From a virus (taxonomy: Duplodnaviria > Heunggongvirae > Uroviricota > Caudoviricetes), in IMG/VR virus record IMGVR_UViG_3300017650_000002: a DNA stretch of 64,000 nt, one strand, 5' to 3'. Both the position numbers and the translations under genes were made by a program. How positions within the stretch are numbered: the first letter of the stretch is position 1; each line of letters opens with the position of its first letter. Shown in pieces: positions 11,482 to 64,000 of this stretch. Below the pieces are notes generated by a model, which was not told where the DNA came from, did no database searches, and saw only the letters and a list, made by a program, of their open reading frames with translations.

Positions 11482-12639
11482 TTACTCGTAAACTGTGATT
11501 GTTTGCTTCTTTGGTGTTACCTTTTGGACTGTAGCATAGTCCAGCTCATAGCCGTAGTGGCTATAGTAGCTGTAAAGCACTTTGTAGAACACTCCGTCAA
11601 TGTTGAAAACTGTGTAGCAGTCTTCTGCTCCACCTTCTCCACCACCGTCCTGTTCTACGAACACACCCTCTTCCAAGAAGTCACCGTCTGCCAGAATGGA
11701 ACTGAATTCATCCATGGCTGCTTCTCGTGCCTCTGCCACAGCCTCCGCATCGCTCATATCCACATTACGGAAGTAATAGCTTTCAGTGTCTACCTTGGTT
11801 GACAGCAGTTCCTTCAGGGTTTCTAGACTAATGGTCTTTGACATATAAATCTCCTTTAAATTAAGTTTCTCCAACACATTCATCATCTCTGTGTGGAGTG
11901 GTTTTAGAAAATGTTCCAGGTTCAGAATGATAAACTCTGAAGCCCACCCCTTTGTAAGGACTGTCACAGTTTTGTGCAGACTCTTATTCCAGGCTTGTTG
12001 TATTGTAATTGACTGTCCCTTATTTGTCAACTGAGGGATTAGCCACCGCTCCAGTGCAATAACAGCTATCTCCTCTTTGAACATCCGTATTTGGCTGTAC
12101 ATAGGAAGATTGTTGAACTTATTACGATCAATAAACACTTCGTGTCCATCTTTCAAACAAGTAGTGTACACTGGTTTCTCTGGATATGCAACCATCTCAT
12201 GCAAAAGATCATGTTCGTGTTGCTTTGGCACAAAGTCATCAAAGAATTCATCCTTAGTCTTGTATAAGGAAAGGAAGTCTTTGTTGCCATGCTCCACCTT
12301 CCAGTGTTCTTTCAAAGTGTTGTAGAGGATTCGGTTATACCTACCACTAGTCCTCTGACTCAGCACCAAAACATCCTGCACATGCTTCCACCAGAAGATG
12401 TCATAAGTTAGGTGGGACAATTTAATAGCTAATAGGTCCCTATTTACAGCCACTCCCCAGATTTGACTTTCGTAGGAAAAGTCGAACATCACTTCCCCCG
12501 GCATTACGCAGACATCCTCCCTACCATCAGGTAGGTAGTCCCTGCTATCTGTCCAAACATCTAAGTCTGTAGGTCTATCAGACTTCCTATGAATAGACCA
12601 AGTATTCATAGCCTTCCTTCCAACAACAATCTTACCCAT
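11482..12639 (-). CDS. hypothetical protein (386 aa)
   Basis: Long ORF; start trimmed to MGKIVVGRK because the 5' extension runs into the high-GC neighbour; no recognisable motif. Confidence 0.55.
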   Translation of the reverse strand: MGKIVVGRKAMNTWSIHRKSDRPTDLDVWTDSRDYLPDGREDVCVMPGEVMFDFSYESQIWGVAVNRDLLAIKLSHLTYDIFWWKHVQDVLVLSQRTSGRYNRILYNTLKEHWKVEHGNKDFLSLYKTKDEFFDDFVPKQHEHDLLHEMVAYPEKPVYTTCLKDGHEVFIDRNKFNNLPMYSQIRMFKEEIAVIALERWLIPQLTNKGQSITIQQAWNKSLHKTVTVLTKGWASEFIILNLEHFLKPLHTEMMNVLEKLNLKEIYMSKTISLETLKELLSTKVDTESYYFRNVDMSDAEAVAEAREAAMDEFSSILADGDFLEEGVFVEQDGGGEGGAEDCYTVFNIDGVFYKVLYSYYSHYGYELDYATVQKVTPKKQTITVYE

Positions 12640-13282
12640 TTGCCACACCCTCGTAGGTGTCCGCAAACTTGGGCTTGCCAGTCTGGGGTGTGGCATAGAG
12701 GTAGCTATTGAACGGTGCATCGGAAGTCAGCCAGGTTAGGTTGCCGAAACCGTCGATCCTGGCGACCGGCTTCACCTCGCTGGCCTGGGGCGCGGCAAAG
12801 AGCGGCATTTCGTCATGCTCCGCGACATGGCCAGCCGGACGCCAGTACACCCAAGCGTCGCTGCCTTCGTCGCGCACGCTTTCCAGCACATCTTTCTCGA
12901 TCCAGCAGACTGGCTGCGCCTCCCCGGCTACAGGGGCGCTTGCCATGTCATGGGCGATCTTCGCCGCGTCGGTTGCGCATCGCTCAAAGTTGTCGCGTGA
13001 AATGCCGAACCCCAGCGCGGTTTCGTAGTGGCTTGCGGCCACATCGCGCAGACGTTCAGCTAGCACCTCCGGATCAAACGCCGCCCGCTCATCGGCTACA
13101 GGGGCGCGCAGCTTGGATAGCAAGGCGGCCTGCACGGCAGCGCACGCCATCAACAGGCCATCTGGCGAATACGCTTCCTTGGAATTCGTTTCCCATGCTG
13201 CGGTAGCGATAGCCAGCAACTGGTCATCGCTGAACCCGATTTCTTGCCCTGCCGCCTGGGTAATGTTGTTCTGGTTAGTCAT
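12632..13282 (-). CDS. hypothetical protein (216 aa), compositional outlier (~62% GC vs ~42% background); paralog of 58799-59581
   Basis: GGAGGA RBS and TAAATG coupling to the upstream gene; shares the N-terminus MTNQN and motifs ASAPVAGEA and AAPQASEV with the 58.8 kb ORF. Confidence 0.55.
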   Translation of the reverse strand: MTNQNNITQAAGQEIGFSDDQLLAIATAAWETNSKEAYSPDGLLMACAAVQAALLSKLRAPVADERAAFDPEVLAERLRDVAASHYETALGFGISRDNFERCATDAAKIAHDMASAPVAGEAQPVCWIEKDVLESVRDEGSDAWVYWRPAGHVAEHDEMPLFAAPQASEVKPVARIDGFGNLTWLTSDAPFNSYLYATPQTGKPKFADTYEGVANG

Positions 13283-30881: not shown

Positions 30882-30957
30882 TGCGGGAGGGAGGCAAGGT
30901 GTTCTCACGACTCTCATAAGGTCGCCTAGCTGGGTTCGATTCCCAGTCCCGCAACCA
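30882..30957 (+). tRNA. tRNA-Met/Ile2 (anticodon CAU)
   Basis: Manual cloverleaf: acceptor TGCGGGA/TCCCGCA, D GAGG/TCTC, anticodon stem CGACT/GGTCG with loop CTCATAA, T-arm CTGGG-TTCGATT-CCCAG, encoded CCA. Confidence 0.6.
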
Positions 30958-31211
30958 GCGTTGCTCTGGGAAATCCCATCCGGGTTAGTACAATCGTCAG
31001 AGCTAGGAAATCAGCAAACACCGGTAGTGCTGAGGACGACAATAGCTTCCGGGAAGCTCTAGTAATGCCGATTTGTCTTAGTGGCGTTCCTGCTTCACTT
31101 TGAACGACAGTACTAGAGTTAGGGCAGGGTCTTTAAGGCACAGGATCAGTGCTAAAGCCCTCTTCCTCCAGGATAGAGCCTAATAGGCCCCCGGAATAGG
31201 GGCAAGAATTT

Positions 31212-31285
31212 GCAGGTAAGCACAAGGTGTGCCGCAGGCCTTCCAAGCCTCGCAGAGTACGGTTCGATTCCGTCTACCCGCTCCA
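31212..31285 (+). tRNA. tRNA-like sequence, possibly tRNA-Gly(UCC), with non-canonical short D-arm (may be degenerate)
   Basis: Good T-arm (GGTTCGATTCC) and CCA; anticodon loop CTTCCAA; acceptor 6/7 paired; D-loop only 3 nt. Confidence 0.3.
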
Positions 31286-31292
31286 TTTTAAA

Positions 31293-31368
31293 GCTGTTGT
31301 AGCTCAGTTGGCAGAGCGCTTCACTTGTAATGAAGATGTCGTGAGTTCGATTCTTACCAACAGCACCA
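31293..31368 (+). tRNA. tRNA-Thr (anticodon UGU)
   Basis: Perfect cloverleaf: acceptor GCTGTTG/CAACAGC, D GCTC-AGTTGGCA-GAGC, anticodon stem CTTCA/TGAAG with loop CTTGTAA, T-arm GTGAG-TTCGATT-CTTAC, CCA. Confidence 0.85.
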
Positions 31369-31382
31369 GATAAGGAACTACA

Positions 31383-32039
31383 ATGGCTAAGCCAAAAAAT
31401 AAGTGGGAAGAAGGCCAGATGTTGGAGCTTATTGGGTTTGACCATTTTTACGTAAAACCTTCTGATGGCAAGAAGGAAAAACGGTTTAAATTCCTGTGCC
31501 ATTGTGGAAATACTGTGGTGACTTCAAAGAGAAAGGTTGAGACAGGTCACACAAAATCATGCGGATGCCTTAAGGTGACTCATGGTATGAAGAGCCATGA
31601 ACTGTATAATGTGTGGAACCTTATGCATCAAAGGTGCAAAAATACTAAATTTAGTAAGTACAAGAACTATGGAGGCCGTGGCATACGTGTGTGCGACGAG
31701 TGGAGTAATCCAATAACAGGATTTAGTTCATTCCTTTCCCACGTAGGAGAAAGGCCAGGGGATGAATATACACTGGAACGTGTCGATGTTGACGGGGACT
31801 ACTGTCCTGGAAATGTGGCGTGGACAAATGATAACTCCTTACAAGTCTTTAATCAGACTGTTAGGGAAAATAACACCTCAGGTAAAACTGGGGTGAGTTA
31901 CGACAAGTCTTGCGGTAAGTGGTGTGCCACAATTAGCAAGGGAGGTATCTCAAAGAAGCGTAAGTTTTCTACTTTCGATCTTGCCTCTGAACAGAGGGAT
32001 GCCTGGGAAATCGAATTTTATGGATTTTTAAAGAAATGA
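31383..32039 (+). CDS. homing-endonuclease-like protein (Zn-finger N-term + HNH_3-like + AP2 domain)
   Basis: LYNVWNLMHQRCKN...YGGRGIRVCDEW...ERVDVDGDYCPGNVAWTN and AP2-like GKTGVSYDKSCGKWCATISKGG...FSTFDLASEQRDAW; starts 15 nt after tRNA-Thr. Confidence 0.6.
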   Translation: MAKPKNKWEEGQMLELIGFDHFYVKPSDGKKEKRFKFLCHCGNTVVTSKRKVETGHTKSCGCLKVTHGMKSHELYNVWNLMHQRCKNTKFSKYKNYGGRGIRVCDEWSNPITGFSSFLSHVGERPGDEYTLERVDVDGDYCPGNVAWTNDNSLQVFNQTVRENNTSGKTGVSYDKSCGKWCATISKGGISKKRKFSTFDLASEQRDAWEIEFYGFLKK

Positions 32040-32455
32040 CACAACAGAATTCATCGTGGGTAAAGGGAGGAGGGTCCCCAAATCCTTCAGGAAGGCCTCC
32101 AGGCCAAATTAGTAAGCCTATTTCTCCTCTCCGTAAGACTTTGAACAAGCTGAAGGAGCTAGAAGATCAGGCCCTAGAGAATATCTCTGCTGTAGTGAAT
32201 GGGACAAAAATTGTCCTGGATGGCAAGGAAGAGGAAGTGGATAAGCAGAAGCTTGAAACTTCTAAGTGGGTAGTAGGCTCAATTGCCTCCCTAACTCGTG
32301 CTGCACTACAAGATGAGGAACTACGTCTGAAGATCAAGATGGGAAATCTGGAACCAAGCCCAGATAGTCCAACATCAAAACAAGAGGACGAGGATGAAGG
32401 AAAAGAAGTTAAGGCTTCATTCTCCCTGTCTCTTGTAAAAGACACGAAAGAGTAA
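32036..32455 (+). CDS. DUF5681-like protein (possible small terminase-like subunit), low-complexity acidic C-terminus
   Basis: N-terminal WVKGGGSPNPSGRP resembles the WxxGQSGNPxGRP signature of DUF5681 proteins that accompany large terminases; ATGA overlap with the upstream endonuclease gene. Confidence 0.4.
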   Translation: MTQQNSSWVKGGGSPNPSGRPPGQISKPISPLRKTLNKLKELEDQALENISAVVNGTKIVLDGKEEEVDKQKLETSKWVVGSIASLTRAALQDEELRLKIKMGNLEPSPDSPTSKQEDEDEGKEVKASFSLSLVKDTKE

Positions 32456-32532
32456 CTATCCGTAGGAAAGTCAGGTAATCCACTTCATTTGGAATGAAGA
32501 GACCGCTGGATCGAAGCCAGCCGGGTAGACCA
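32456..32532 (+). tRNA. tRNA-Pro (anticodon UGG)
   Basis: Acceptor CTATCCG/CGGGTAG, U8A9, anticodon stem CTTCA/TGAAG with loop TTTGGAA, T-arm GCTGG-ATCGAAG-CCAGC (A at position 54 is unusual), CCA. Confidence 0.6.
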
Positions 32533-32537
32533 TATAT

Positions 32538-32620
32538 GGGCGAGTGGTGTAATGGTAGCCACGGTGGTCTTAGAAGCCACTGCTTTTAGCGTGTCAGTTC
32601 GAGTCTGACCTTGCCCACCA
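32538..32620 (+). tRNA. tRNA-Leu (anticodon UAG), class II with long variable arm
   Basis: Acceptor GGGCGAG/CTTGCCC, anticodon stem GTGGT/GCCAC with loop CTTAGAA, 12-nt variable arm with GCT/AGC stem, T-arm GTCAG-TTCGAGT-CTGAC, CCA. Confidence 0.75.
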
Positions 32621-32626
32621 AAATAA

Positions 32627-32702
32627 GTTGCTATCGTCTAAAGGTTAGGACTACAGGTTTTCAACCTGTCAATCGCGGGTTCAAGTCCCCGTGGCAACTC
32701 CA
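32627..32702 (+). tRNA. tRNA-Glu (anticodon UUC)
   Basis: Acceptor GTTGCTA/TGGCAAC, D GTCT/GGAC, anticodon stem ACAGG/CCTGT with loop TTTTCAA, CCA; the T-stem has only 3 clean pairs (GCGGG/CCCCG). Confidence 0.55.
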
Positions 32703-33095
32703 AATATAGCTTCAGAGTGTTAAAGGACACACGCATACCTGTCACGTATGAATGAGGGGATCGTTACCCCTTGAGGCTGCCAAGATATCCGGCTTTAGTC
32801 CGGTTGAATTCACCTGGACCGTTATAGCTGCGGCTATTTCCAGGCGAGACAGATGATTCGCTACCGTCTGTCTCACTGCTAGGCCCGTTGGGACTCTTCC
32901 CTTATTGGGCCATCCGCTACCTGAGAGTAGCAGCCTCGTGCAATGCGAGGCTTAACACGAAGCTGGTAATCGTGGTGTGGAGAGGATGTCACTTTATGGA
33001 CATCGGCGGCTAGGGCAGGCAGAGTGGCCCTAGCCTAATACAACACGGTGGAGGAATCCTTAGGGATGTCCTCCATTCTTTATTTGAGGATCAAT

Positions 33096-33438: not shown

Positions 33439-34818
33439 ATGATTATCGGGCCTAGATCAGAATTCCAGGCCAGATACCTAAATTCTGATGCAGACATCAT
33501 TATTGCTGGAGGTGCGGCAGGAAGCTCTAAATCTTATGTAGGGCTGATGAGGCACATCAGGTGGTTTGAAGATCCATACTATCGTGGGTTCTGTATTCGG
33601 AAAAACTCCACTGCTATTATGAAGGAAGGCGGACTGTTTGATGAAGCTGTAGAGCTTTACAGACAGGTTGAGCCTAAGATTCAAATTAAGTTAAAAGACC
33701 AAAAGATTGTATTCCCATCAAGGGCTTCCGTATCATTCACACACTATGAGAATGACGCAGCAGGAAATACATTCCAAGGGTTGCAACTGTCAAGTGTCTT
33801 CTATGATGAAGCCACGCATGCTGCTGAGAAACACATTTGGTGGCTTGTGTCTCGTTTACGCTCCAAAGCTGCGATGAACCCATGCATCTGGTTGACATGT
33901 AACCCAGATCCAGACTCATACCTAAGGGAATGGGTGGATCCATGGTTATTCCCAGAAGGTCATGAGAAGGCAGGACTTCCAAACCCTGAAAAGAATGGAA
34001 GCGCCAAGTATATCATACGACAAGATGGTGATCTACGTTGGGCGGACACAAAAGAAGAGCTAATCGACCTTTATGGAAAAAACTGGCTTCCAATCGATCA
34101 CAAAGAACAGATTCAGCCAAAGAAGATCGAAGTGCACCTAGGGACCATCTATGATAACCCAACTCTTATGGAAACAAATCCAGGCTACCTATCAAGCCTA
34201 GAGGCTCTTCCAGAGGTTGAGAAGCAGAGGTTGCTACTAGGTAACTGGAACGTCCGTGAACAAGCTAGCTCCTATTTTAGCAGGAACTGGTGTGAGGAAG
34301 TTTCATACATCAATCCAAATGAAATACAGTCCACTGTTAGGACATTTGACTTCGCTATGACATTGAAGTCAGATCTTAACACTTCCCCTGACTACACAGT
34401 TTCAACCTTGATGCACAAGCTGAAGGATGGTACTTATGCTGTAGCTAGTGTAACAAGACATAGAATGCTTTCTGGGGATTGGATTAATTTCATTATAGAA
34501 ATTAGTAAGGATGACCCAAAAGGGACTTCATACTACCTCCCATTAGATCCTGGTCCTATGGCTAAACGTGCACACATAATCCTGAAGAGGGATCTTGCGG
34601 AGCTTGGATTAGCCTGTCAGACAATTAACACAAACAGTTCAAAGCTAGACAGGTTTAGGCCTTTCTCTGCATTTGCTCAAACCGGTGGTGTTAAGTTTGT
34701 AAAGGGCTGTGGGGTTGATTTGGAAAACAAAATCAACAACGAAAACAAGTTTATCTATAATGAGCTTGAAGCCTTTACTGGCGAAAGAAAGAAAGGAGAG
34801 AATGGGCACGACGATTAA
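33439..34818 (+). CDS. terL: terminase large subunit
   Basis: Walker A IIAGGAAGSSKSY, Walker B/coupling VFYDEATH, C-terminal nuclease-domain-sized region. Confidence 0.8.
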   Translation: MIIGPRSEFQARYLNSDADIIIAGGAAGSSKSYVGLMRHIRWFEDPYYRGFCIRKNSTAIMKEGGLFDEAVELYRQVEPKIQIKLKDQKIVFPSRASVSFTHYENDAAGNTFQGLQLSSVFYDEATHAAEKHIWWLVSRLRSKAAMNPCIWLTCNPDPDSYLREWVDPWLFPEGHEKAGLPNPEKNGSAKYIIRQDGDLRWADTKEELIDLYGKNWLPIDHKEQIQPKKIEVHLGTIYDNPTLMETNPGYLSSLEALPEVEKQRLLLGNWNVREQASSYFSRNWCEEVSYINPNEIQSTVRTFDFAMTLKSDLNTSPDYTVSTLMHKLKDGTYAVASVTRHRMLSGDWINFIIEISKDDPKGTSYYLPLDPGPMAKRAHIILKRDLAELGLACQTINTNSSKLDRFRPFSAFAQTGGVKFVKGCGVDLENKINNENKFIYNELEAFTGERKKGENGHDD

Positions 34819-34915
34819 CAAATAGGTCGTCTTTAAATCTATTGAAAACGGTGAAAACCCTCGTAAGAATTTACCTGGACAATACCGTGCGAAGCCTGGC
34901 AACAGGAACGTGTAA

Positions 34916-34954
34916 CGACTATCCCTTCGGGGAGTACACCCAAGTGGGTGGAAG
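34916..34954 (+). repeat. 39-bp intergenic element CGACTATCCCTTCGGGGAGTACACCCAAGTGGGTGGAAG (two hairpins), copy A
   Basis: Identical 39-mer recurs at 47807-47845; both copies are followed ~25-30 bp later by a GATATAGTC motif. Confidence 0.85.
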
Positions 34955-35031
34955 CGGTAGACACACAAAAGTGTGATGATATAGTCTAATCTGCATAGTA
35001 ATATGCAGCAGCCTTAACATGGAGAATTTCT

Positions 35032-35769
35032 ATGGCACATTTAAAAACAAGCATTCAGTATAAAGAATTTTACGAGTCTAACCTTTGGGGAACTATGCAG
35101 GTTGTCGATAGAAAACCTGGAAAGTTGAAGGTTAGGTTTACAGAGACAGGGTATGAGACTTGGGCTTACACCTACAACGTGTTGAACGGAAAAGTTGAAG
35201 ATAAAGTTGCTAGAGAGTCTTCAAAAACTAGGTGGAAACCCTACCATAAAGAGTTTTTGTCAAACTCTGGACATAGGTTCACGGCTTATGAGAAGTTAGG
35301 GAATAAGCTTAGGATTATCTTCCCTGTCACAGGATATTCAACAGTTGTGTACCAGAACAATGCAATTTCGGGTAAGGTTTCAGACCCTTACGAAATTTCT
35401 GTCCTTGGCGTAGGCTTTATTGGGGAATTTGACAAGTCAGTCCCTTATTGGAAACAGGCTAAGCAACTTTGGAATAATATGATGAAACGGTGTTATAACC
35501 CAAATGACACACGTGGATATTTTGGTGAATGCTTTGTTAGTGAAAGTTGGAAATGTTTTTCAAACTTCTTGAATGATATAAAACGATTGGAAGGATTCCA
35601 AGAGTGGTTGTCAGGAAAAATCCCGTATGATCTTGACAAAGATTCAAAGGTACTTGGGAACAAAGTTTATTCTTTTCCAGCTTGTAGATTTCTCCCTAGG
35701 ACTGAGAATAGATCACTAGGGGCAATCAATGCAAGAAAGGCTGGGCCTGTACTAACGACACAGGCTTAA
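35032..35769 (+). CDS. homing-endonuclease-like protein (N-terminal DNA-binding repeats + HNH_3-like core related to 18393/21825/31383)
   Basis: LWNNMMKRCYNP ... DLDKDSKVLGNKVYSFPAC pattern shared with the paralogs; free-standing between terminase and portal. Confidence 0.45.
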   Translation: MAHLKTSIQYKEFYESNLWGTMQVVDRKPGKLKVRFTETGYETWAYTYNVLNGKVEDKVARESSKTRWKPYHKEFLSNSGHRFTAYEKLGNKLRIIFPVTGYSTVVYQNNAISGKVSDPYEISVLGVGFIGEFDKSVPYWKQAKQLWNNMMKRCYNPNDTRGYFGECFVSESWKCFSNFLNDIKRLEGFQEWLSGKIPYDLDKDSKVLGNKVYSFPACRFLPRTENRSLGAINARKAGPVLTTQA

Positions 35770-35889
35770 TACAATGATTGTTGACACAATATCCGATGGA
35801 TTCTATGTGCTTGCCCGTAATAAGAGCATCCCAAGTTTCCACAGTTCGGCTACGAGTTTGATGCAACAAGTTAAATAACTGGAGGGCAA

Positions 35890-37356
35890 ATGGCCTTAGA
35901 AGAAAAACTTGAAGAAGGGCCTTTTCCTGCCCTACGCATGGCTAAGGGTCAAAGGTCTTTCAATGGACTCCAAGTTATTGGTGGAAAGATCCTTGAAGAA
36001 TGTAATCGAGACTTAAGGTGGCCCCAGTGTATGGTGACATACAAGGCCATGTTTAAGGACGCTACAATTGCTCCTGCCTTAGCCTTGATGGAAATGAATA
36101 TCTCAAAGGTGAAGTGGACGGTAAAGATTCCAGAAGGATATGATGAGCAGCTTTCTGAAAAAGCTGATTTCCTTCGTTCTGTGATGAACGATATGGATCA
36201 CTCCTTTGAAGACTTTATTAACTCGGTGTCAACATTCAATCGTTTTGGATTTGGTCTGAACGAGAAAGTATACCGTAGGCGTCTTAAATCGAAGGGTAGT
36301 AAGTATGATGACAATCTGTATGGAATTGCAAGCCTTCCTATAATCTCTCAAGACACTATAGCTTCTTGGGAATGGGATGCAGATGGCAGAAAGCTTACAG
36401 GGATTAAGCAATGGGTTAATAAGCCTCACGGGCAAGATGGAATTGTATCCTCCATCGAAGCCAGCCCAGTGGCTATTCCAAGACATAAATTCCTTATGTT
36501 CAGGGCAGATCCACTGAAGAATAACCCAGAAGGTCTAAGCCCACTTAACGGTGTGTATATGGCCTGGAGGTTTAAGACTGAGCTAGAGCGGTTTGAGTCT
36601 ATGGGTGTGTCCCAGGACCTACGTGGCCTGAAGGTTCTTAAGATTCCTGCACGGTATATGTCTGAAGAGGCCAGTGAAGACGAAAAGGCCACTTATGAAA
36701 TGTTTACCAAGGCGATGGCCTTGCTTCACAAAGGTGAGCAGTCTGCAATAATTATCCCTTCAGATGTTTCTGAAGAGAAGGTGCCGCTATTCGACTTTAA
36801 GCTTGAATCTGTTATGGGACAATCAACCCATAACATTCATGAAATCATAGGACGTTACAGAAAAGAAATAATTACTGGACTTCTGTGTCAGCAACTTATT
36901 CTAGGACAAGATGGGAGTGGTTCTTTCGCCCTATCAGAGTCTCTAGAGGGAGCAACAGATACAGTAATTGATGCCCGTCTTAGGGAAATTCGTAATCAAC
37001 TAAACCATGATCTTGTACCACAACTTTTCGCTTTGAATGGTTGGGACACAGATATTCTTCCGTACTTCGATTTTGAAGAAGTCAAGAAGAGCAGCATGGA
37101 TGATTTCTCCAAGTCTATCCAACGTATTGCATCTGTTGGTGGGCTAGTTCTTAATGCTGAAACTATTAATACTATTCACGAGAAGCTTGGACTTCCAGTT
37201 CCATTTGACCAAACAGATATTGATATCGAGGAAGTTAGGGAAATGACAACTCCTGATATCAGTAATGCCGGAGAAGGAATGCAAACTGGGTCTGGGAACG
37301 GAACATCTAGTTCCGCTGCCGGTAGAGATAATTCAGCTTCAAATTTGGAGAATTAA
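35890..37356 (+). CDS. portal protein
   Basis: 488-aa protein immediately after the terminase module and before protease/scaffold/capsid; acidic disordered C-tail. Confidence 0.55.
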   Translation: MALEEKLEEGPFPALRMAKGQRSFNGLQVIGGKILEECNRDLRWPQCMVTYKAMFKDATIAPALALMEMNISKVKWTVKIPEGYDEQLSEKADFLRSVMNDMDHSFEDFINSVSTFNRFGFGLNEKVYRRRLKSKGSKYDDNLYGIASLPIISQDTIASWEWDADGRKLTGIKQWVNKPHGQDGIVSSIEASPVAIPRHKFLMFRADPLKNNPEGLSPLNGVYMAWRFKTELERFESMGVSQDLRGLKVLKIPARYMSEEASEDEKATYEMFTKAMALLHKGEQSAIIIPSDVSEEKVPLFDFKLESVMGQSTHNIHEIIGRYRKEIITGLLCQQLILGQDGSGSFALSESLEGATDTVIDARLREIRNQLNHDLVPQLFALNGWDTDILPYFDFEEVKKSSMDDFSKSIQRIASVGGLVLNAETINTIHEKLGLPVPFDQTDIDIEEVREMTTPDISNAGEGMQTGSGNGTSSSAAGRDNSASNLEN

Positions 37357-37815
37357 ATGAGTGATAGTCTGTTATCCAAAATTTGTTCAAGACTTGGCAT
37401 TGTAAAAGCCAAGGAGGACAAAGAAGAGGAGATGATTAGCTACGAAGTTGTCTACGAACCAAACACTAAAGACGCCCACAATCAATGGATGAGTGAAGAC
37501 ACTATCCGTAAGGGTTGTGAAAACTTTAATGCTAATCTTGCTAAGGGAGTGGTTAAACCAAACCTATTCCACATGAAAGACACCGATCAGTTTGAAATCG
37601 TAAAAACCTGGATTAACGAAGAGCTTGATGTAAAGGTACAAGGTACTGAAGAGGCCATTTCAAAGGGATCCTGGGTGGCAATGATCAAGTACAACGACAG
37701 TAACCTGTGGGAGCTTAGAAAGGCGAACATTGTACAGGGAGTTTCTATTGGATGCCTTGGCACTGTCAATGATGAAACCGGGGAGATTACCAATCTCTCT
37801 TTTGACGGAGAGTAA
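37357..37815 (+). CDS. putative prohead protease / head maturation protein
   Basis: Position between portal and scaffold; 152 aa; no confident motif. Confidence 0.35.
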   Translation: MSDSLLSKICSRLGIVKAKEDKEEEMISYEVVYEPNTKDAHNQWMSEDTIRKGCENFNANLAKGVVKPNLFHMKDTDQFEIVKTWINEELDVKVQGTEEAISKGSWVAMIKYNDSNLWELRKANIVQGVSIGCLGTVNDETGEITNLSFDGE

Positions 37816-37816
37816 T

Positions 37817-38773
37817 ATGCTGGTAATCAAGAATAGGGATGAGGAGAAGGAGAAGAGTTCTCCCCATCTCGCACTTACGCATGAAGCTCAGGGAGGGCCT
37901 GCAAATGGCCGACGTGCTGCGCTTCTGCTTAAGAATGTTGAAGATATGACTACAGATGACAAGTTATTTCTGGAGACATTCTTGAAGTCCCAAGACCCTA
38001 AGGATGAGATTGAGAAATCGTCTTATCAGTCTTTATATCGCAAGCTAGATGTTGCTGTATCTAGTTATGTGAAGGACAAGATTGATCGCTGGGGATGGGC
38101 CTACGTTAGAGATTTTGACGATAAGACAGTTATTTTCTCTGGCAACGGTGGGGTATATGCTATCTCCTACTCTGTTGATTCCTCTTCTGAGGTTTCACTT
38201 GGTGAAGAAGCTACCCTTGTGAATGAAGTCCTATCTTGGGAAGACAGCGAAGGAAAGATTGTTGTTTCTCAAAGTGACTCCATTCCTGGCGATGTTTCAC
38301 AACTGGTAGCTAAATCATTCATGGAGCCTCGTGCTGATGATGAGAAAGTTGCTACGATTTTTAAATCTATCTATGAAGAAGGTAAGCAAATGGATGAACT
38401 AAAGGTTCAAAATGAAGCCCTTACTCAAGAAGTAGCCACTCTTAAGGCTGACCTTGAAAAGGCCCTAAAAACCCTAAATGAAGCTGCTGAAGCTAAAGCC
38501 CTAGAGAAGGCTGAAAAGCGTCTAGAAGTTATTAAGGGATTTGCCATCGATGGTGAAGTTGAGGCTCTACACAAGTCTCTAGCCTCTCTTGATGATGAGT
38601 CTTTTGATACAGTCACCAAGTCAATGGCTGCTGCTGTTAAGGCTAAGGAAGAAGGCTCAGAACTGTTTAAGACAGTCTCAAGCGCAACTGCCCCAGTAAC
38701 ACAAAGTCAAGTCGAAAAGACATCAGGTCAGATGCTAGTTGAAGCTATGTCTGCCCTAAACAAGAATAAGTAA
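37817..38773 (+). CDS. scaffolding protein
   Basis: Acidic, Ala/Glu/Lys-rich coiled-coil sequence located just before the decoration and major capsid genes. Confidence 0.5.
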   Translation: MLVIKNRDEEKEKSSPHLALTHEAQGGPANGRRAALLLKNVEDMTTDDKLFLETFLKSQDPKDEIEKSSYQSLYRKLDVAVSSYVKDKIDRWGWAYVRDFDDKTVIFSGNGGVYAISYSVDSSSEVSLGEEATLVNEVLSWEDSEGKIVVSQSDSIPGDVSQLVAKSFMEPRADDEKVATIFKSIYEEGKQMDELKVQNEALTQEVATLKADLEKALKTLNEAAEAKALEKAEKRLEVIKGFAIDGEVEALHKSLASLDDESFDTVTKSMAAAVKAKEEGSELFKTVSSATAPVTQSQVEKTSGQMLVEAMSALNKNK

Positions 38774-38792
38774 TAAACCCAAAGGAAAAGAA

Positions 38793-39257
38793 ATGGCTCT
38801 ACAAACCTTTAAGCAAGACATCCTGACAGACCTAGTTGCTCACGAAGACAGCCCATATGACGGTTATGCCCGTCGAGTTGTAAACGTCACCCTAGGTGCT
38901 AATGCTATTGTTAAGATGGGTACTGTTGTATTCCGCACAGCTTCAATTGATCAGACCCTTCCATACGCCCCAGTTACCCCAGCTAATGCTGCCACAGCCC
39001 TGGTTGATGGCAATGAACTAGCTGTCGTTTTTGGCGACAAGTTTGGTGCAAAGACTGAGTTCACAAACGTCACTGCCGGTAATGCCCCATGTGTATCCTT
39101 CGTTCGCGGTGAAGTTCAGCTAAAGGATCATCTCCTAATGGACAACTGTGGTATTACCAGCCGCACTTCAGCCGAATACAAGGCTCTGAAGGGAATTCTG
39201 GAACTACAGGGTGTAATCATCGAAACAACCCTAGGACACGTTCCAGCTGGTCTGTAA
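38793..39257 (+). CDS. head decoration protein (lambda gpD-like placement)
   Basis: 154-aa beta-rich protein directly upstream of a lambda-E-like capsid gene. Confidence 0.4.
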   Translation: MALQTFKQDILTDLVAHEDSPYDGYARRVVNVTLGANAIVKMGTVVFRTASIDQTLPYAPVTPANAATALVDGNELAVVFGDKFGAKTEFTNVTAGNAPCVSFVRGEVQLKDHLLMDNCGITSRTSAEYKALKGILELQGVIIETTLGHVPAGL

Positions 39258-39282
39258 TACAACAAGAATAACGGAGAATTAA

Positions 39283-40356
39283 ATGACTGATCAAGTTCAA
39301 CTAAGCAAGGCTATTGGTAACATCTTTGTTCCAGGCAAGCGTATCGATATTACCCCTACCGTTGAGGTGGTTGGTAATACCTGGGGTCTGATGAACGCCC
39401 TAGGCCTGTTTGAAAATGAAATGAAGTCCCAGAAGCTAGTACAGATCAACACTGTAGAAGATGTTGATACCCTACTAACTGACCGTAACTGGGATGAGCG
39501 TAAGAACACAATGAAGCGTGGTGAGCGTAAGTACACCACAGTTGCTATTCCCCACTTCCCAGTGCAGGACGCTGTTCTTCCTAACGACCTAGACGGTAAC
39601 ACCGATATCGACGCTCTGTTTGCAGGACGTATCGACATGCCACTGACACTACAAAGCGTAATGTCAAAGAAGCTGCTGGCTATGCGTAAGGCTGCTGCCC
39701 TTTCACTAGAGTATGCACGTATGCAGCTAATCAAGGACGGAAGCGTCTATGCTCCTAACGGCACCGTAGTTACCAACTTCTACACAGAGTTTGGTGTCAC
39801 ACGTCAGACCATCCCTCTAGATCTAGCTTCAACAACAGATAACCCAATCGGTAAGATGGGTGGTGTTTACGCTCAGGTTCAAGATAGCGTCCTGTCAGGT
39901 GACACTGTAACTGATATCGTAGCTCTGTGTTCACCAGAGTTCTTCGAGGCCCTAATCACTAACCCATTCGTTACTGAATCATATCAGTATTTCAATCAAG
40001 CTCAGGGTCCACAAATCCTGAACCAACGTCTAGCTACTCGCGCTCCTCTGGACGCTCGCTATCGTGTGTTTGATTATGGTGGTATCACATTCATCGAAGT
40101 ACGTGGTGGTGTTGGTGGTGTCCGTTACGTTGAAGCAGGCAAGGCTTATGTATTCCCACGCGGTACAGATTCCTTCCGTACTTTCTTCGCTCCAGCGAAT
40201 AAGTTTGCTTCAATCAACCAGACTGCACAAGAAGTCTACGCGTTCACATACGCAAACGAGGAGGATGACATCATCGAACTCGAAACAGAAACTAACTTCC
40301 TGAACGCCCTAGTGCGTCCTCAGATTGTTATGACTCTGGACATGGCTGCTGCTTAA
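39283..40356 (+). CDS. major capsid protein (lambda gpE-like family)
   Basis: 357 aa, compositionally biased and highly expressed-looking, followed by a strong terminator; lambda-E-like pattern. Confidence 0.65.
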   Translation: MTDQVQLSKAIGNIFVPGKRIDITPTVEVVGNTWGLMNALGLFENEMKSQKLVQINTVEDVDTLLTDRNWDERKNTMKRGERKYTTVAIPHFPVQDAVLPNDLDGNTDIDALFAGRIDMPLTLQSVMSKKLLAMRKAAALSLEYARMQLIKDGSVYAPNGTVVTNFYTEFGVTRQTIPLDLASTTDNPIGKMGGVYAQVQDSVLSGDTVTDIVALCSPEFFEALITNPFVTESYQYFNQAQGPQILNQRLATRAPLDARYRVFDYGGITFIEVRGGVGGVRYVEAGKAYVFPRGTDSFRTFFAPANKFASINQTAQEVYAFTYANEEDDIIELETETNFLNALVRPQIVMTLDMAAA

Positions 40357-58798: not shown

Positions 58799-59581
58799 AT
58801 GACTAACCAGAACAGAACCGAACAGGCGGGCGAGCCTGTAGCCGAAATCTGTATCGGCGTAAGCACTACCGGGCAAGAAGCAACCATCTGCATTATGCAG
58901 CCGCATAATGACGGCACCACCACGGTGATCTATTCCCAAACGCACCCGCTCGGCGACAGCATGGGCCGCGCCTCGCTGGCAAGCGCACCTGTAGCCGGGA
59001 AAACCAGGGAGGCCGTGGATTACGTTCGCGGCGGCGCGCTGAACTTTGACGCACACCCAGATGGCGCCCCTGTAGCCGATGAGCTGGCGGCCGTAGACCC
59101 GTGCGGGTATGTCGCCGTCAAGGTGTCGGCGGTCGATTGGCTCAAGGATAAATTCCCGGCGCTGACGATCAAGGCCGGACTCTGCGAGCGCATCGGCGGA
59201 CGGCTCTATACCATCACTCGCCTGATGCGCGACCATGACGCCGCCCTGGCAAGCGCCCCTGTAGCGGGGGAGGCGGTGGCCGCCATGCTCCGCAATCGCC
59301 GGCATCTCGGGAGTGGCGACAACGGAAAGCAGTTTTACTCCGATTTTTCCGAATGGTTCCCCGCCACGGTTGGCCATGCCAGGGCTGTTACGTCGCCCAA
59401 CCGTAACGAGCTGGGAACTTGGGAGGTTCGTTGGCTGGTGGACGCCGCACCCCAGGCCAGCGAGGTAGACGTCATCGAAGAAATCGCCAAGCAATGGGAC
59501 GGTTGCATCTACGACGCCGGGCCGGGAGGCGATATAGATATTGGTCAGGCTATTCGTGGTGCAGCGAATAAGAGGAGTTAG
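58799..59581 (+). CDS. hypothetical protein (260 aa), compositional outlier (~65% GC); paralog of 12632-13282
   Basis: AAGGAGG RBS; first 16 nt ATGACTAACCAGAACA identical to the 13282 paralog; internal repeat LASAPVAG(K/E) x2; shared AAPQASEV. Confidence 0.55.
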   Translation: MTNQNRTEQAGEPVAEICIGVSTTGQEATICIMQPHNDGTTTVIYSQTHPLGDSMGRASLASAPVAGKTREAVDYVRGGALNFDAHPDGAPVADELAAVDPCGYVAVKVSAVDWLKDKFPALTIKAGLCERIGGRLYTITRLMRDHDAALASAPVAGEAVAAMLRNRRHLGSGDNGKQFYSDFSEWFPATVGHARAVTSPNRNELGTWEVRWLVDAAPQASEVDVIEEIAKQWDGCIYDAGPGGDIDIGQAIRGAANKRS

Positions 59582-59583
59582 GA

Positions 59584-59886
59584 ATGAGTTACAAAATGTT
59601 TCTTGATGACGAACGTTACCCTACAACACCAGATTGGCTAGTAGCACGAAGCAGTTTCGATGCTGTTCATTTTGTAAGTAACTTCGGAATGCCGAAGGAG
59701 ATTGCCTTTGACCATGACTTGGGTGGGGCTGACACCTCCATGGTATTTCTCAGGTGGCTAGAAGAGGAGTTGATACAAGGTAGGGTTGAATTTCCTGAAA
59801 ATTTCAGCTACACTGTGCACAGTCAGAACCCGGTCGGGGCTACAAACATCATGTGTCATATGGAGTCTCTACTAAAATATTTCTAG
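59584..59886 (+). CDS. hypothetical protein (100 aa)
   Basis: ORF starting 2 nt after the previous stop. Confidence 0.45.
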   Translation: MSYKMFLDDERYPTTPDWLVARSSFDAVHFVSNFGMPKEIAFDHDLGGADTSMVFLRWLEEELIQGRVEFPENFSYTVHSQNPVGATNIMCHMESLLKYF

Positions 59887-60199: not shown

Positions 60200-61978
60200 A
60201 TGTCGTATATTGTAGAGCGTATGGGCCTAAGTATTGACTTAGCCCTAGAGGGTAAGGTTGCATGCCCTCGTTGTGTCAGTAAGGGGAAGGATAGGAGTGG
60301 AGATAACTTACAGGTGTACGGGCTAGATAATGATGGGCGTCCTAGAGGCGCTCATTGTTTTTCTTGTGAGTACACAATTGCTTCCGAAGAGTGGAAGGAA
60401 GAGAACGGGTATGTTGAAGAAAAGGAGTATGTGACAGTGGGTAAAGAATTCAATGACGAGGTGAGGAAGATCATTTTCAAAAGTACGGGAAATGATCCGA
60501 AGGGTTATCGTGGTATTAGGAAGGATGTCTCAGAGTTTTACGGAGTTCGCTACCGGTATAGCGAAGAGACGGGCGAGGTAGTGGAGACACTGTACCCCAC
60601 TACAATGGAGTACAAGCCAGCAGGGTATAAGGTACGAAAGCATCCAAAGGATTTTTCTGGCCCCTGGGGTGACACAGGGAAAGACTGTGAGCTATTTGGT
60701 CAGGTAAGGTTTCAGACGCAGACAGGCTTTTGTCTCATTGTTGGAGGGGAGCACGATGTTTTAGCAGCCTATCAGATCCTAAAGGATAATCAGAAGACAT
60801 CGAAGTTTGATCCTCCAGCTGTAGTATCTGCCACTATTGGCGAGTCAGGTGCTGTTAAGCAGATTCAGGCAAACTATCAATGGTTTAATCAGTTTAAGCA
60901 AGTTATCATTTGCATGGATAACGACACAGTGGGGAAGGCTTCAGCTGAGAAGATTGCCAGGGTACTGCCACGGGGCAAGGTCAAGATCATGAAGATGCGG
61001 TATAAGGATCCTAACAAGTACCTTGAACTTAAAAAGGATTCCGAATTTGTCTCAGACTTTTTCGGTGCTGGTACGTGGACTCCAGCCGGTGTTCACGGGT
61101 CTGGCAGTTTGTACGAAGCAGCATTGAACTATGCAGAGTTGAAGCAGCTATCTTTACCACCATTCCTGCCAAAGTCTAGGGAGATGTTTGGTGGAGAGGG
61201 TTTGGTCAAGGGAGAAATCTCTGTAATCTTTGCAAAGACCTCTGTAGGTAAGAGTAGCTTCGTAGATGCCTTTACGATCAACTGGGCGCTTTTTGAGCCT
61301 GAGGAAGTGGTTGGTGTTCTGTCCCTAGAAGCTACAGTGGACAAGTACTCAACAAACTTGTTTTCTAACTATTTAGGTGTTAAACTGATTCGGATGGCAA
61401 ATGCTCAAGAGCGTGTAGCCTATCTAAAGCAGCCTGACGTTAAAGCCAAGATTGACTACTTAACCAAGACAGAAGATGGCACAGATAGGTTTTTTGTGTT
61501 TGATGACCGTGGCGGTGATTTGGAAACTGTCAAGGAGAAGATCCTTGAAATGATTATTCAGTGTGGTGTTACAATTCTGATTGTTGACCCATTCTCAGAC
61601 CTTATGGCTGGTATGGATTTAAATTCTCAGGAAGAGTTTGTAGCTTGGATCAAGAAGCTTCTTAAGGAGTATCCTCAGGTTTCTCTGGTGCTGGTTTGCC
61701 ACACCAAGAAGAGCCAAACTAAGGAGGGTAATTTGGTGGAAGAGGACATCATTGGCACATCAACCATTATGAAGTCTGCCGCACAAACCATCTCGTTGGA
61801 GCGTGATAAGCTGAATCCCAATGATATCTTGAAGAACGTGACGGTTGTTACAATCCACAAGAATCGGCATTATTCATCAACTGGAGTGGCTGATAAGGTG
61901 TACTATGACTTCAAGACAGCACAGCTTATCAATTTTGAAGAATGGCTAAAGGATAACCCTAATGCCTTGGAACTATAA
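60200..61978 (+). CDS. bifunctional DNA primase/helicase (T7 gp4-like)
   Basis: N-terminal Zn ribbon CPRC...CFSC, TOPRIM-like LIVGGEHDVLAAYQ, DnaB-type Walker A GEISVIFAKTSVGKSSFV and Walker B LILIVDPFS. Confidence 0.8.
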   Translation: MSYIVERMGLSIDLALEGKVACPRCVSKGKDRSGDNLQVYGLDNDGRPRGAHCFSCEYTIASEEWKEENGYVEEKEYVTVGKEFNDEVRKIIFKSTGNDPKGYRGIRKDVSEFYGVRYRYSEETGEVVETLYPTTMEYKPAGYKVRKHPKDFSGPWGDTGKDCELFGQVRFQTQTGFCLIVGGEHDVLAAYQILKDNQKTSKFDPPAVVSATIGESGAVKQIQANYQWFNQFKQVIICMDNDTVGKASAEKIARVLPRGKVKIMKMRYKDPNKYLELKKDSEFVSDFFGAGTWTPAGVHGSGSLYEAALNYAELKQLSLPPFLPKSREMFGGEGLVKGEISVIFAKTSVGKSSFVDAFTINWALFEPEEVVGVLSLEATVDKYSTNLFSNYLGVKLIRMANAQERVAYLKQPDVKAKIDYLTKTEDGTDRFFVFDDRGGDLETVKEKILEMIIQCGVTILIVDPFSDLMAGMDLNSQEEFVAWIKKLLKEYPQVSLVLVCHTKKSQTKEGNLVEEDIIGTSTIMKSAAQTISLERDKLNPNDILKNVTVVTIHKNRHYSSTGVADKVYYDFKTAQLINFEEWLKDNPNALEL

Positions 61979-62771: not shown

Positions 62772-64000
62772 ATGAAACCAATTTTCAATTGGGATAAGGC
62801 CACAGTCTTCGACATCGAAGGGGATGGTCTTCTAGATGAAATTACAAAGATGCACGTCCTTTCCTTTCAAATGCAAGGAAAGGATGACGTATCCAGTATC
62901 GATCCGCGAGACGGGATGGAACGTGTGGAGAAGATGTTCAAGTGGCACATTGACAATCAGGTGCCCGTAATTGCCCACTATGGTATCTTGTTCGACATTC
63001 CAGCCTTGGAAAAGTTGTTTGGATTTGATCTTTCAGAGTTGATGGTGATCGATACTGTAGCTGTCTCTTGGTATCTGAACACAGACCGAAAGCTTCACGG
63101 TCTGGACAGCTTTCATGAGGACTACGGCATTAAGAAGCCTGAGATTGATGACTGGAAGAACTTGACATACGAAGAGTACCGTCATCGTTGTGAAGAGGAC
63201 GTTAAGATTAACAAGGCCCTCTGGGAGGACTTGAAGGGTAGGCTGATTGAGATGTACACCCTAGCCCAGGCTGAGATTGATGCAGGAAATGTGGGCGGAA
63301 CCCGTATGTCTGCGGATGAAGAAATCTTCCTAGACCAGTTTAAGGGGGATTCTGTAGAGAATGCTATCAACCGTATCTTGACATTTCTAATGTTTAAGAT
63401 GGATTGCGCACGGCTACAGGAAAAGACCGAGTGGGACTTGGACATGGACTTCTTGAATGAGTCCTTGGAAGGCATGTACGAGAAGCTTGAAAAGGCCAAG
63501 GGTGAGCTTGAAAGCGTTATGCCTAAGATTCCTAAGTACTCTGATAAGAAGAAGCCTGCAAAGCCCTTTAAGGCCAATGGTGAGAAATCTGCCGCTGGGC
63601 TATCCTGGGATGCTGTGCTAAAGGACTACCAGGAGAAAACTGTGGACGAGTTTGGTACACGTCTGGTTATCGACAGCGATAAGGAAGACTGCCTTAGGGT
63701 TCTGAAGAAGTACGAGGAGCCCAACGCAGGAAGTAGCGATCAGATCAAAGCTTTGTTGTTTTCAAAGGGCTGGATTCCCCAGACATTTAAATATGTCAAG
63801 GATGAGGAAGCATTCAACCTCTGGATCGCCAGCAAGCCTACAGAGGGTAGCCCAAGGTTTATGTGGACTCACTGGAAGGAATCCAAACCCAAGGAACGTG
63901 CCATTCCACAGGTTACTAAGGCAGGAGAGGACGGCAGAGAGCTTTGTGAGTCTGTAGAGGACTTGGCAGAGGAAGTACCTGAAATTCGTCTGTACAGCAC
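62772..64000 (+). CDS. DNA polymerase I family (family A) with N-terminal 3'-5' exonuclease domain, truncated by window end
   Basis: Exo I motif VFDIEGDGL, Exo II-like HYGILFDIPAL; AAGGAG RBS; reading frame open to the window end. Confidence 0.7.
   Translation, partial: MKPIFNWDKATVFDIEGDGLLDEITKMHVLSFQMQGKDDVSSIDPRDGMERVEKMFKWHIDNQVPVIAHYGILFDIPALEKLFGFDLSELMVIDTVAVSWYLNTDRKLHGLDSFHEDYGIKKPEIDDWKNLTYEEYRHRCEEDVKINKALWEDLKGRLIEMYTLAQAEIDAGNVGGTRMSADEEIFLDQFKGDSVENAINRILTFLMFKMDCARLQEKTEWDLDMDFLNESLEGMYEKLEKAKGELESVMPKIPKYSDKKKPAKPFKANGEKSAAGLSWDAVLKDYQEKTVDEFGTRLVIDSDKEDCLRVLKKYEEPNAGSSDQIKALLFSKGWIPQTFKYVKDEEAFNLWIASKPTEGSPRFMWTHWKESKPKERAIPQVTKAGEDGRELCESVEDLAEEVPEIRLYS

Follow-up and report, generated by a model that had tools for sequence, protein, structure and literature searches.

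The window analyzed here is a 64,000-nucleotide stretch of DNA from an uncultured phage (Caudoviricetes; IMG/VR record IMGVR_UViG_3300017650_000002), in which two genes differ sharply from their surroundings in base composition. Gene A (12632–13282, minus strand) encodes 216 amino acids at 61.0% GC and gene B (58799–59581, plus strand) 260 amino acids at 61.6% GC, with a GC content at third codon positions of 70% and 69%, respectively, in a window of 44.0% GC overall. Both open reading frames lie where an initial annotation—made from the letters of this DNA and read by us as a set of claims to be checked—had placed them, and the foreign composition that it described is real, with the figures given here taking the place of its 62–65% against ~42%. 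Across all 650-nt windows, the GC fraction has a mean of 0.440, a standard deviation of 0.034, and a maximum of 0.638, and it exceeds 0.54 at genes A and B only. The two genes are the only GC islands of the window and stand out in this sliding-window analysis by ~5 standard deviations above the mean. Their first and last ~120 nt are lower in GC (0.52–0.55). The strong Shine–Dalgarno sequences and the translational coupling to phage neighbors that had been noted for both genes are also present: gene A has GGAGGA upstream, its ATG overlaps the preceding stop codon (ATGA), and the ATG of the next gene sits 8 nt within its 3′ end; gene B has AAGGAGG upstream, and the following gene begins 2 nt past its stop codon.

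Judged by their sequences, genes A and B each belong, as separate members, to a large, unannotated, and hyperdiverse mosaic family, in which near-invariant linkers join variable modules. The initial annotation had taken the two for paralogs, and the strings that they share are indeed conspicuous. The identical 16-nt 5′ end ATGACTAACCAGAACA, which encodes MTNQN, is present in both genes (in gene A at 13267–13282, minus strand) and has no more than these two matches in the window even if up to two mismatches are allowed, against an expectation of 0.05. Besides a 19-nt string TGGCAAGCGCCCCTGTAGC and a 17-nt string CCCCAGGCCAGCGAGGT, the genes have a 21-nt string GCGCCCCTGTAGCCGATGAGC (APVADE) in common, which had not been listed before. 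With an expectation of 0.08, the window contains six copies of the core CCTGTAGCCG, of which genes A and B account for five; the sixth, at 63411–63420 on the minus strand, is outside any family-like frame or family motif and is taken as a chance match. The shared peptide motif needs a correction in one residue: gene A reads MASAPVAGEA and not LASAPVAGEA. Pairwise BLASTP, on the other side, aligns only the N-terminal 11 residues and short linkers, the best match being 12 residues long (E = 0.006). Hence, the gene bodies are unrelated, and paralogy does not hold: the motifs common to both genes are inter-module linkers of the family and no sign of a common descent of the gene bodies. The initial annotation had been ready to give up its reading if the two proteins failed to align beyond the short motifs and each matched a different well-known family. 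The former is what was found; the latter is not, as neither protein fits a well-known family.

Homology searches returned 39 relatives for gene A and 62 for gene B, and every relative with an organism name belongs to Achromobacter or Bordetella. A profile search against 1.84 billion representative proteins expanded the family to 1,295 clusters at 50% identity (E ≤ 1e-3), whose sampled named members again come from these two genera. At the DNA level, a 23-nt linker pattern searched in one genome per species (185,579 species) hit 32 loci, 30 of them in Achromobacter or Bordetella and two in metagenome-assembled genomes. The DNA matches among 50,697 phage records are likewise confined to Achromobacter and Bordetella phages, which are of unrelated types: Mano, phiAxp-2, PHB04, PHB09, ART, the N4-like JWDelta and Axy24, and the temperate B. 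avium IFTN phages. The family is restricted to a single host lineage and is present in all phage types of this lineage.

Within the family, relatives are mosaic. They cover 13–57% of the query at 75–99% identity, the position of the match varies, and the proteins otherwise differ. A multiple alignment displays near-invariant linkers between unalignable modules—a layout of beads on a string—behind an N terminus of the type MT(N/D)QNNAAQAA. The family linkers are LSKLRAPVADERAAF, ALASAPVAGEAQPV(A/C)W, and PLYAAPQASEAV (YAAPQASEAV type). Most members end with an AALSAQPGAQK tail, which is absent from genes A and B; since several other members also do not carry it, we treat this tail as optional and not as defining. 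Cutting 100 proteins at the linkers gave 337 modules in 129 clusters, and the same module is seen with many different neighbors and at different ordinal positions. Member proteins comprise 140–550 residues and modules ~35–75 residues, most of which are unannotated: in the 98 rows of our two family alignments, A1 and A2, the known domains are the dATP/dGTP pyrophosphohydrolase PF04447 (three members) and HTH_19 (one member), both of which are absent from genes A and B. Membership was judged by at least two of the linkers LSKLRAPVADE, ASAPVAGEA, and AAPQASE, encoded with GCC-CCT-GTA-GCC and CCCCAGGCCAGCGAG. Gene A bears three of these and gene B four, in addition to one linker-like motif, and their linker DNA is 95–100% identical to that of Achromobacter and Bordetella loci. 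Furthermore, seven of the eight segments of the two genes fall into clusters that contain modules from other family proteins, and DNA tracts of 78–100% identity cover the rest of both genes except for the last ~140 nt of gene A. The proposal of a diversifying cassette holds in so far as the family is diverse and cassette-like, with shuffled modules.

Gene A consists of an N-terminal module, linker 1, a helical module, linker 2, a small α/β module, linker 3, and a C-terminal tail, all on the minus strand. Linker 1, AALLSKLRAPVADERAA (13079–13129), is 95–100% identical over 30–47 nt to many Achromobacter and Bordetella loci, and linker 2, MASAPVAGEAQ (12912–12947), matches many loci at 100% over 26–34 nt. 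Between linkers 2 and 3 lies the exchangeable module VCWIEKDVLESVRDEGSDAWVYWRPAGHVAEHDE (12807–12911), which is 95–98% identical on the protein level to P0003 and P0004—proteins that are otherwise different—and which, taken together with both flanking linkers (nt 338–508 of gene A), has 92–93% DNA identity to the GC-rich IMG/VR contigs L048 and L050. The cluster of the gene A module at residues 122–163 has 12 members, with seven different left and 12 different right neighbors. Linker 3, PLFAAPQASE(V) (12774–12806), again has its match in family loci. The N-terminal 190 nt of the gene are 86% identical in DNA to another contig, and the last segment (residues 170–216) is a singleton.

Gene B (plus strand) comprises five modules and the same number of linkers or linker-like motifs. 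The latter are a linker-like PVAEIC motif with the CCTGTAGCCG core (58835–58852), the linkers GRASLASAPVAG (58964–58999), PDGAPVADELAA (59056–59094), and AALASAPVAGEA (59239–59275), and DAAPQASEV (59441–59467). From the PVAEIC motif at its 5′ end to AALASAPVAGEA at its 3′ end, the gene is homologous to a gene of a Mu-like A. xylosoxidans prophage (L007, P0041), and this homology culminates in a tract from nt 166 to nt 477 (58964–59275) with 305 of 312 nucleotides identical (97.8%). Identity to the prophage gene shifts stepwise at successive linkers: 19% in the N-terminal 36 nt, 77% in module 1, 92% in the ASAPVAGK linker, 98% in module 2, 95% in the APVADE linker, 144 of 144 nucleotides in module 3 (59095–59238), 97% in the ASAPVAGEA linker, and 28% just past this linker, downstream of nt 477. 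Of the 37 mismatches between the two genes, 22 are at third codon positions (p = 0.001), an excess that indicates purifying selection on a functional coding sequence. The C-terminal module behind DAAPQASEV has its own counterpart in the GC-rich contigs L143 and L222 (85% DNA identity). Residues 209–258 (59423–59572) moreover match a hypothetical protein from Stenotrophomonas phage C121 at 51% on the protein level, so at least some modules occur beyond both the linker family and Alcaligenaceae.

The linkers are conserved as DNA and not only as protein. Of 68 copies of APVA(G/D)E in the loci retrieved, 67 use the codons GCC CCT GTA GCC. Compared with the rest of the same genes, the linkers use GTA for valine at 100% versus 13.7%, GGG for glycine at 79% versus 18%, and GAG for glutamate at 98% versus 46%; CCT is used at 18% elsewhere in family genes. 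The linkers thus form islands of near-identity of 30–50 nt. These islands also delimit the tracts shared between loci: 23 of 24 ends of long blastn tracts fall inside linkers, which make up ~20–24% of the genes (binomial p ~8e-14).

The shared 5′ end had been interpreted as a conserved low-GC phage junction. It is the N terminus of the family itself: MT(N/D)QNNAAQA, encoded ATGACCAACCAGAACAAC..., is found in GC-rich Achromobacter and Bordetella loci, where the start region in Achromobacter reads ATGACCAACCAGAACAACGCCGCCCAGGCG and the N terminus is encoded ATGACCAACCAGAAC.... Gene A begins with MTNQNNITQAA and gene B with MTNQNRTEQAG, many family loci have the same start, of the form MT(N/D)(Q/H)NN-AAQ, and both MTNQNR and MTNQNN starts are present in Achromobacter loci (L017 and L014). 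Since the same N terminus occurs in GC-rich family loci, the shared 5′ end is not a phage junction. One synonymous difference sets the window apart, as threonine at the start is encoded ACT in both of its genes and ACC in the Achromobacter copies; this is weak evidence of contact between the two copies or of a duplication.

The phage that carries these two genes is of myovirus type by its virion module, which comprises a Mu-type portal, an HK97-like capsid protein, and a T4-like baseplate wedge, and its longest contig reaches ~92 kb. Comparison of the terminase and the primase–helicase (33439–40356 and 60200–61978 of the window) places the Pseudomonas phages vB_PsaM_M1, SYP, and phiPMW nearest among cultured relatives by terminase (56–60% identity), while the primase–helicase is 49% identical to Vequintavirinae. 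Pseudomonas is a GC-rich genus. On the DNA level, no cultured phage among the 50,697 phage records matches the window phage. The nearest IMG/VR relatives are 36–54% identical in the proteins of the flanking genes and show no GC island at the corresponding positions; at this distance, the absence of the island is evident while the exact junction is not mappable. Together with the islands themselves, this absence agrees with the view of the initial annotation that the genes are horizontally acquired, compositionally foreign cargo. It had also asked whether related phages carry different cargo at the same two junctions; no such junction is seen in the relatives. In the nearest of them, the DUF7275 gene is followed by a 236-residue open reading frame (L041, 5124–5834) that on visual inspection resembles a homing endonuclease of the HNH/AP2 type; the window has no counterpart at that position. 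Directly downstream of gene B lies a 100-residue gene (59584–59886, plus strand) with PF20274 (cREC_REC), which we take to be a receiver-like domain tied to cyclic-phosphate or RNA-end processing; an RNA-ligase-like gene is found elsewhere in the window.

Among 172 motif-bearing loci from IMG/VR and JGI metagenomes, the median GC of the flanks is 0.62, and the window phage alone has a true family gene between flanks of low GC. Three low-GC metagenome contigs bear the exact 23-nt motif (L176, 1763–1785; L182, 443–465; L223, 2104–2126) within an unrelated Thr/Ala-rich protein (…AASAPVAGETLRITVAG…); these are one lineage seen three times, and probably a chance match. Given the near-identical tract with an Achromobacter prophage, the probable host of the window phage is Achromobacter or Bordetella. 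The same sample as that of the window phage (JGI 3300017565) also contains a 37-kb GC-rich phage-like contig with the family linker motif (L083/L200), hence Achromobacter-type phages co-occur with it. Six tRNA genes are encoded at 30882–32782 (Met-CAU, Thr-UGU, Pro-UGG, Leu-UAG, Glu-UUC, and Asp-GUC), four of which—those for Thr, Pro, Leu, and Glu—read A-ending codons, as would fit a low-GC phage in a GC-rich host.

Elsewhere in the host lineage, the family gene sits in the early operon of prophages. In a B. bronchiseptica prophage, it is found between a cI-like repressor and the integrase, in another prophage near an excisionase-like gene, in a Mu-like prophage in the early region, and in phage IFTN1 next to RecT and exonuclease VIII. 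We infer that the family consists of host-directed early accessory proteins. Each module might, more speculatively, be an independent small binding or enzymatic domain that acts on the host, for instance on its defence, its nucleotide pools, or its regulation. PF04447 (DUF550) gave no gathering-score match in genes A and B, and three relatives carry it as one module. PADLOC and NCBIfam contain no family that matches A, B, or six relatives. Comparison of the models with PDB and BFVD by Foldseek and hidden Markov models gave no match at E < 0.1, which at pLDDT values of 59–65 is weak evidence of absence. Against cultured phages, tblastn found nothing for A and for B just the 50-residue match to C121, the modules being short and the linkers probably masked as low complexity, and a synthetic query of concatenated linkers gave four weak matches only.

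Taken together, we consider it probable that genes A and B represent an early-protein family of interchangeable modules whose cassettes were recently acquired from Achromobacter or Bordetella phages or prophages at the linkers. In the mechanism that we propose, the family would circulate among temperate, Mu-like, N4-like, and large lytic phages of Achromobacter and Bordetella, and the linkers would serve as 30–50 nt homology islands for relaxed homologous recombination. Recombination enzymes of phage or host might cross over in the linkers, so that modules would move as cassettes. Inside an Achromobacter or Bordetella cell, the 44% GC phiPMW/rV5-like myovirus may recently have picked up both genes, or as a minimum the cassettes in their interior, from GC-rich prophages or from phages infecting the same cell.

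Several points weigh against this interpretation. It does not account for the entry of the first copy into a genome without flanking homology. Most loci behind the codon statistics were retrieved by a DNA pattern that includes the ASAPVAGE linker, which biases the figures for this linker; the APVADE, APQASE, and LSKLRA linkers lie outside the retrieval pattern and are equally uniform. The invariance of the linkers could also stem from a direct function on the nucleotide level and not from recombination. No cultured relative of the window phage that infects Achromobacter is known, and its probable host is deduced from shared DNA. Amelioration of the window copies toward AT gave inconsistent counts (21 versus 10 and 5 versus 14), so that the timing of the acquisition is read from identity only. 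On the protein side, genes A and B match nothing significantly in Pfam, PHROGs, NCBIfam, PADLOC, sequence profiles of the PDB, or Foldseek, the sole exception in these libraries being a weak match to phrog_660 (E = 0.016), a family of unknown function, and the AF2 models made with family alignments are of moderate confidence only (mean pLDDT of 65 for A and 59 for B).

The alternative that fares best—and that we regard as somewhat unlikely—is that one gene was acquired only once and then duplicated inside the phage genome, the interior modules being replaced later by recombination with prophage copies, such that the two genes would be paralogous at their anchored ends only. Both genes share TAAATGACT... 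with the same synonymous ACT, both have the lower GC at their ends, and the interior of gene B is near-identical to the prophage gene while its first 36 nt are unrelated to it. However, 16–19 nt are little evidence for such a course. With both start types present in Achromobacter loci, two independent acquisitions explain the data equally well, and the C-terminal part of gene B, which is unrelated to that of gene A, has its own GC-rich counterpart.

It is less likely still that the linkers are conserved because they are functional DNA or RNA—recognized by a site-specific nuclease or recombinase, folded into an RNA hairpin, or slowing translation between domains by the rare codons CCT-GTA—with recombination as a side effect or as a process that is actively driven. 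In favor of such a function, the nearly fixed synonymous sites use codons that are rare elsewhere in the same genes, and the ASAPVAGEA linker (linker 2 of gene A) folds into a hairpin of −18.6 kcal/mol (z = −2.15). This folding is marginal, though: 3 of 200 shuffled sequences fold equally well, and the copy is the only one of five folded linker copies that beats shuffled sequence at all, wherefore we set RNA hairpins aside as the main explanation of the linkers. In two Achromobacter phages that are unrelated to each other, the gene directly following the family gene encodes an HNH endonuclease (Mano gp47, L004 5461–5895; JWDelta gp23, L055 3072–3419), which could be coincidence or a link to nuclease-driven exchange; neither gene of the window, however, is adjoined by a nuclease. 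Moreover, concerted evolution by frequent crossovers can by itself keep linkers uniform.

Quite improbable is the original proposal of two paralogous cargo genes—anti-defence or host-takeover cassettes—inserted behind a conserved low-GC phage junction. The GC islands and the coupling to phage neighbors would agree with it, as would a 19-nt string TAAATGACTAACCAGAACA that is identical in A and B and uses ACT where the Achromobacter copies use ACC. Its phage-junction part, however, is largely refuted, given that the MTNQN(N/R) start belongs to the family in GC-rich bacterial and prophage loci and that relatives of the phage have no such junction; in addition, no alignment is obtained between the gene bodies, and no anti-defence family matches either protein. 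An artefact—a chimera of the assembly, or Achromobacter contamination attached to a low-GC phage contig—might be suggested by the abrupt GC boundaries but can be practically dismissed, because five independent assemblies (ERZ27256372, ERZ27256359, JGI 3300017565, SRR7976247, and SRR7976150) show identical genes with the same surroundings, and the frames of these genes overlap flanking phage genes on both sides.

The exchange of cassettes at linkers resembles known systems without coinciding with any of them. The distal tail-fiber genes of T-even phages recombine between conserved "His boxes", and collagen-like repeats flank the variable regions in host-specificity genes of Streptococcus and Lactococcus phages. 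As in the linker family, short conserved motifs inside a gene divide variable domains and act as crossover points, and the domains are swapped as cassettes between phages. Those systems, however, are virion adhesins with a receptor-binding role, whereas the present proteins are non-structural and of the early region, their linkers are common to all phage types of one host lineage, and the synonymous sites of these linkers are nearly invariant.

De Paepe et al. (2014; PMC3945230) described relaxed recombination on short, diverged homology by Rad52-like phage recombinases. Common to both cases are mosaics of >90% identity with short flanking homology, the exchange with resident prophages, and intragenic segments of ~100 bp. 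Their E. coli survey revealed no recent mosaics between virulent and temperate coliphages (PMC3945230); here, in contrast, a lytic-looking large myovirus shares a 312-nt tract of 97.8% identity with a Mu-like prophage, and the homology islands are a built-in, repeated trait of the gene family.

A further comparison is offered by Ea22 and the genes of the exo–xis region of phage lambda (PMC7093339, PMC10834534). These occupy an early-operon position equivalent to that of the family gene in prophage relatives, between recombination genes or repressor and xis/int, and they share its high sequence diversity and multi-domain proteins with flexible parts. Ea22, however, has a coiled-coil architecture and no repeated linkers, and homology was rejected: hhalign of the A1 and A2 profiles against it gave a probability of 0.1 (E = 0.6–0.7), with no Pfam match. 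The context also differs, since genes A and B of the window phage lie among replication and nucleotide-metabolism genes, whereas the prophage copies lie in the early operon beside int/xis. Finally, the polyvalent proteins of phages and conjugative elements, which Iyer et al. are said to have described in 2017, reportedly combine several domains in one polypeptide. Like them, the linker family strings together independent, presumably host-directed domains in combinatorial variation; polyvalent proteins, however, are very large and have recognizable enzymatic domains, whereas almost no module of these 140–550-residue proteins belongs to a known family. The family of genes A and B is new and carries no annotation; the type of process by which it evolves is known, whereas the setting is unusual.

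For the uncultured ~92-kb phage lineage, the finding provides a host prediction—Achromobacter or Bordetella—from a near-identical DNA tract and not from composition. It points to a temperate Mu-like prophage as a recent source of genes for a lytic-looking myovirus of low GC that carries tRNA genes, a transfer that bears on the safety of therapeutic phages against Achromobacter, a cystic fibrosis pathogen. It also brings to light a family of >1,000 clusters without a Pfam, NCBIfam, or PADLOC model, with >100 uncharacterized small domains that are probably host-directed. As the linkers make breakpoints directly readable, the family is a natural system to measure the minimum homology for cassette exchange between phages. 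Tentatively, and as a possibility more than an expectation, the linkers might be a shared "adaptor code" across all temperate, Mu-like, N4-like, and large lytic phages of Achromobacter and Bordetella that makes their early accessory genes a communal combinatorial library of host-directed modules, with cassettes exchanged in co-infection or in lysogens, possibly by an enzyme recognizing the CCTGTAGCC core. If true, this would be a population-level diversification of non-structural phage proteins, across the temperate–virulent divide and a 20-point gap in GC.

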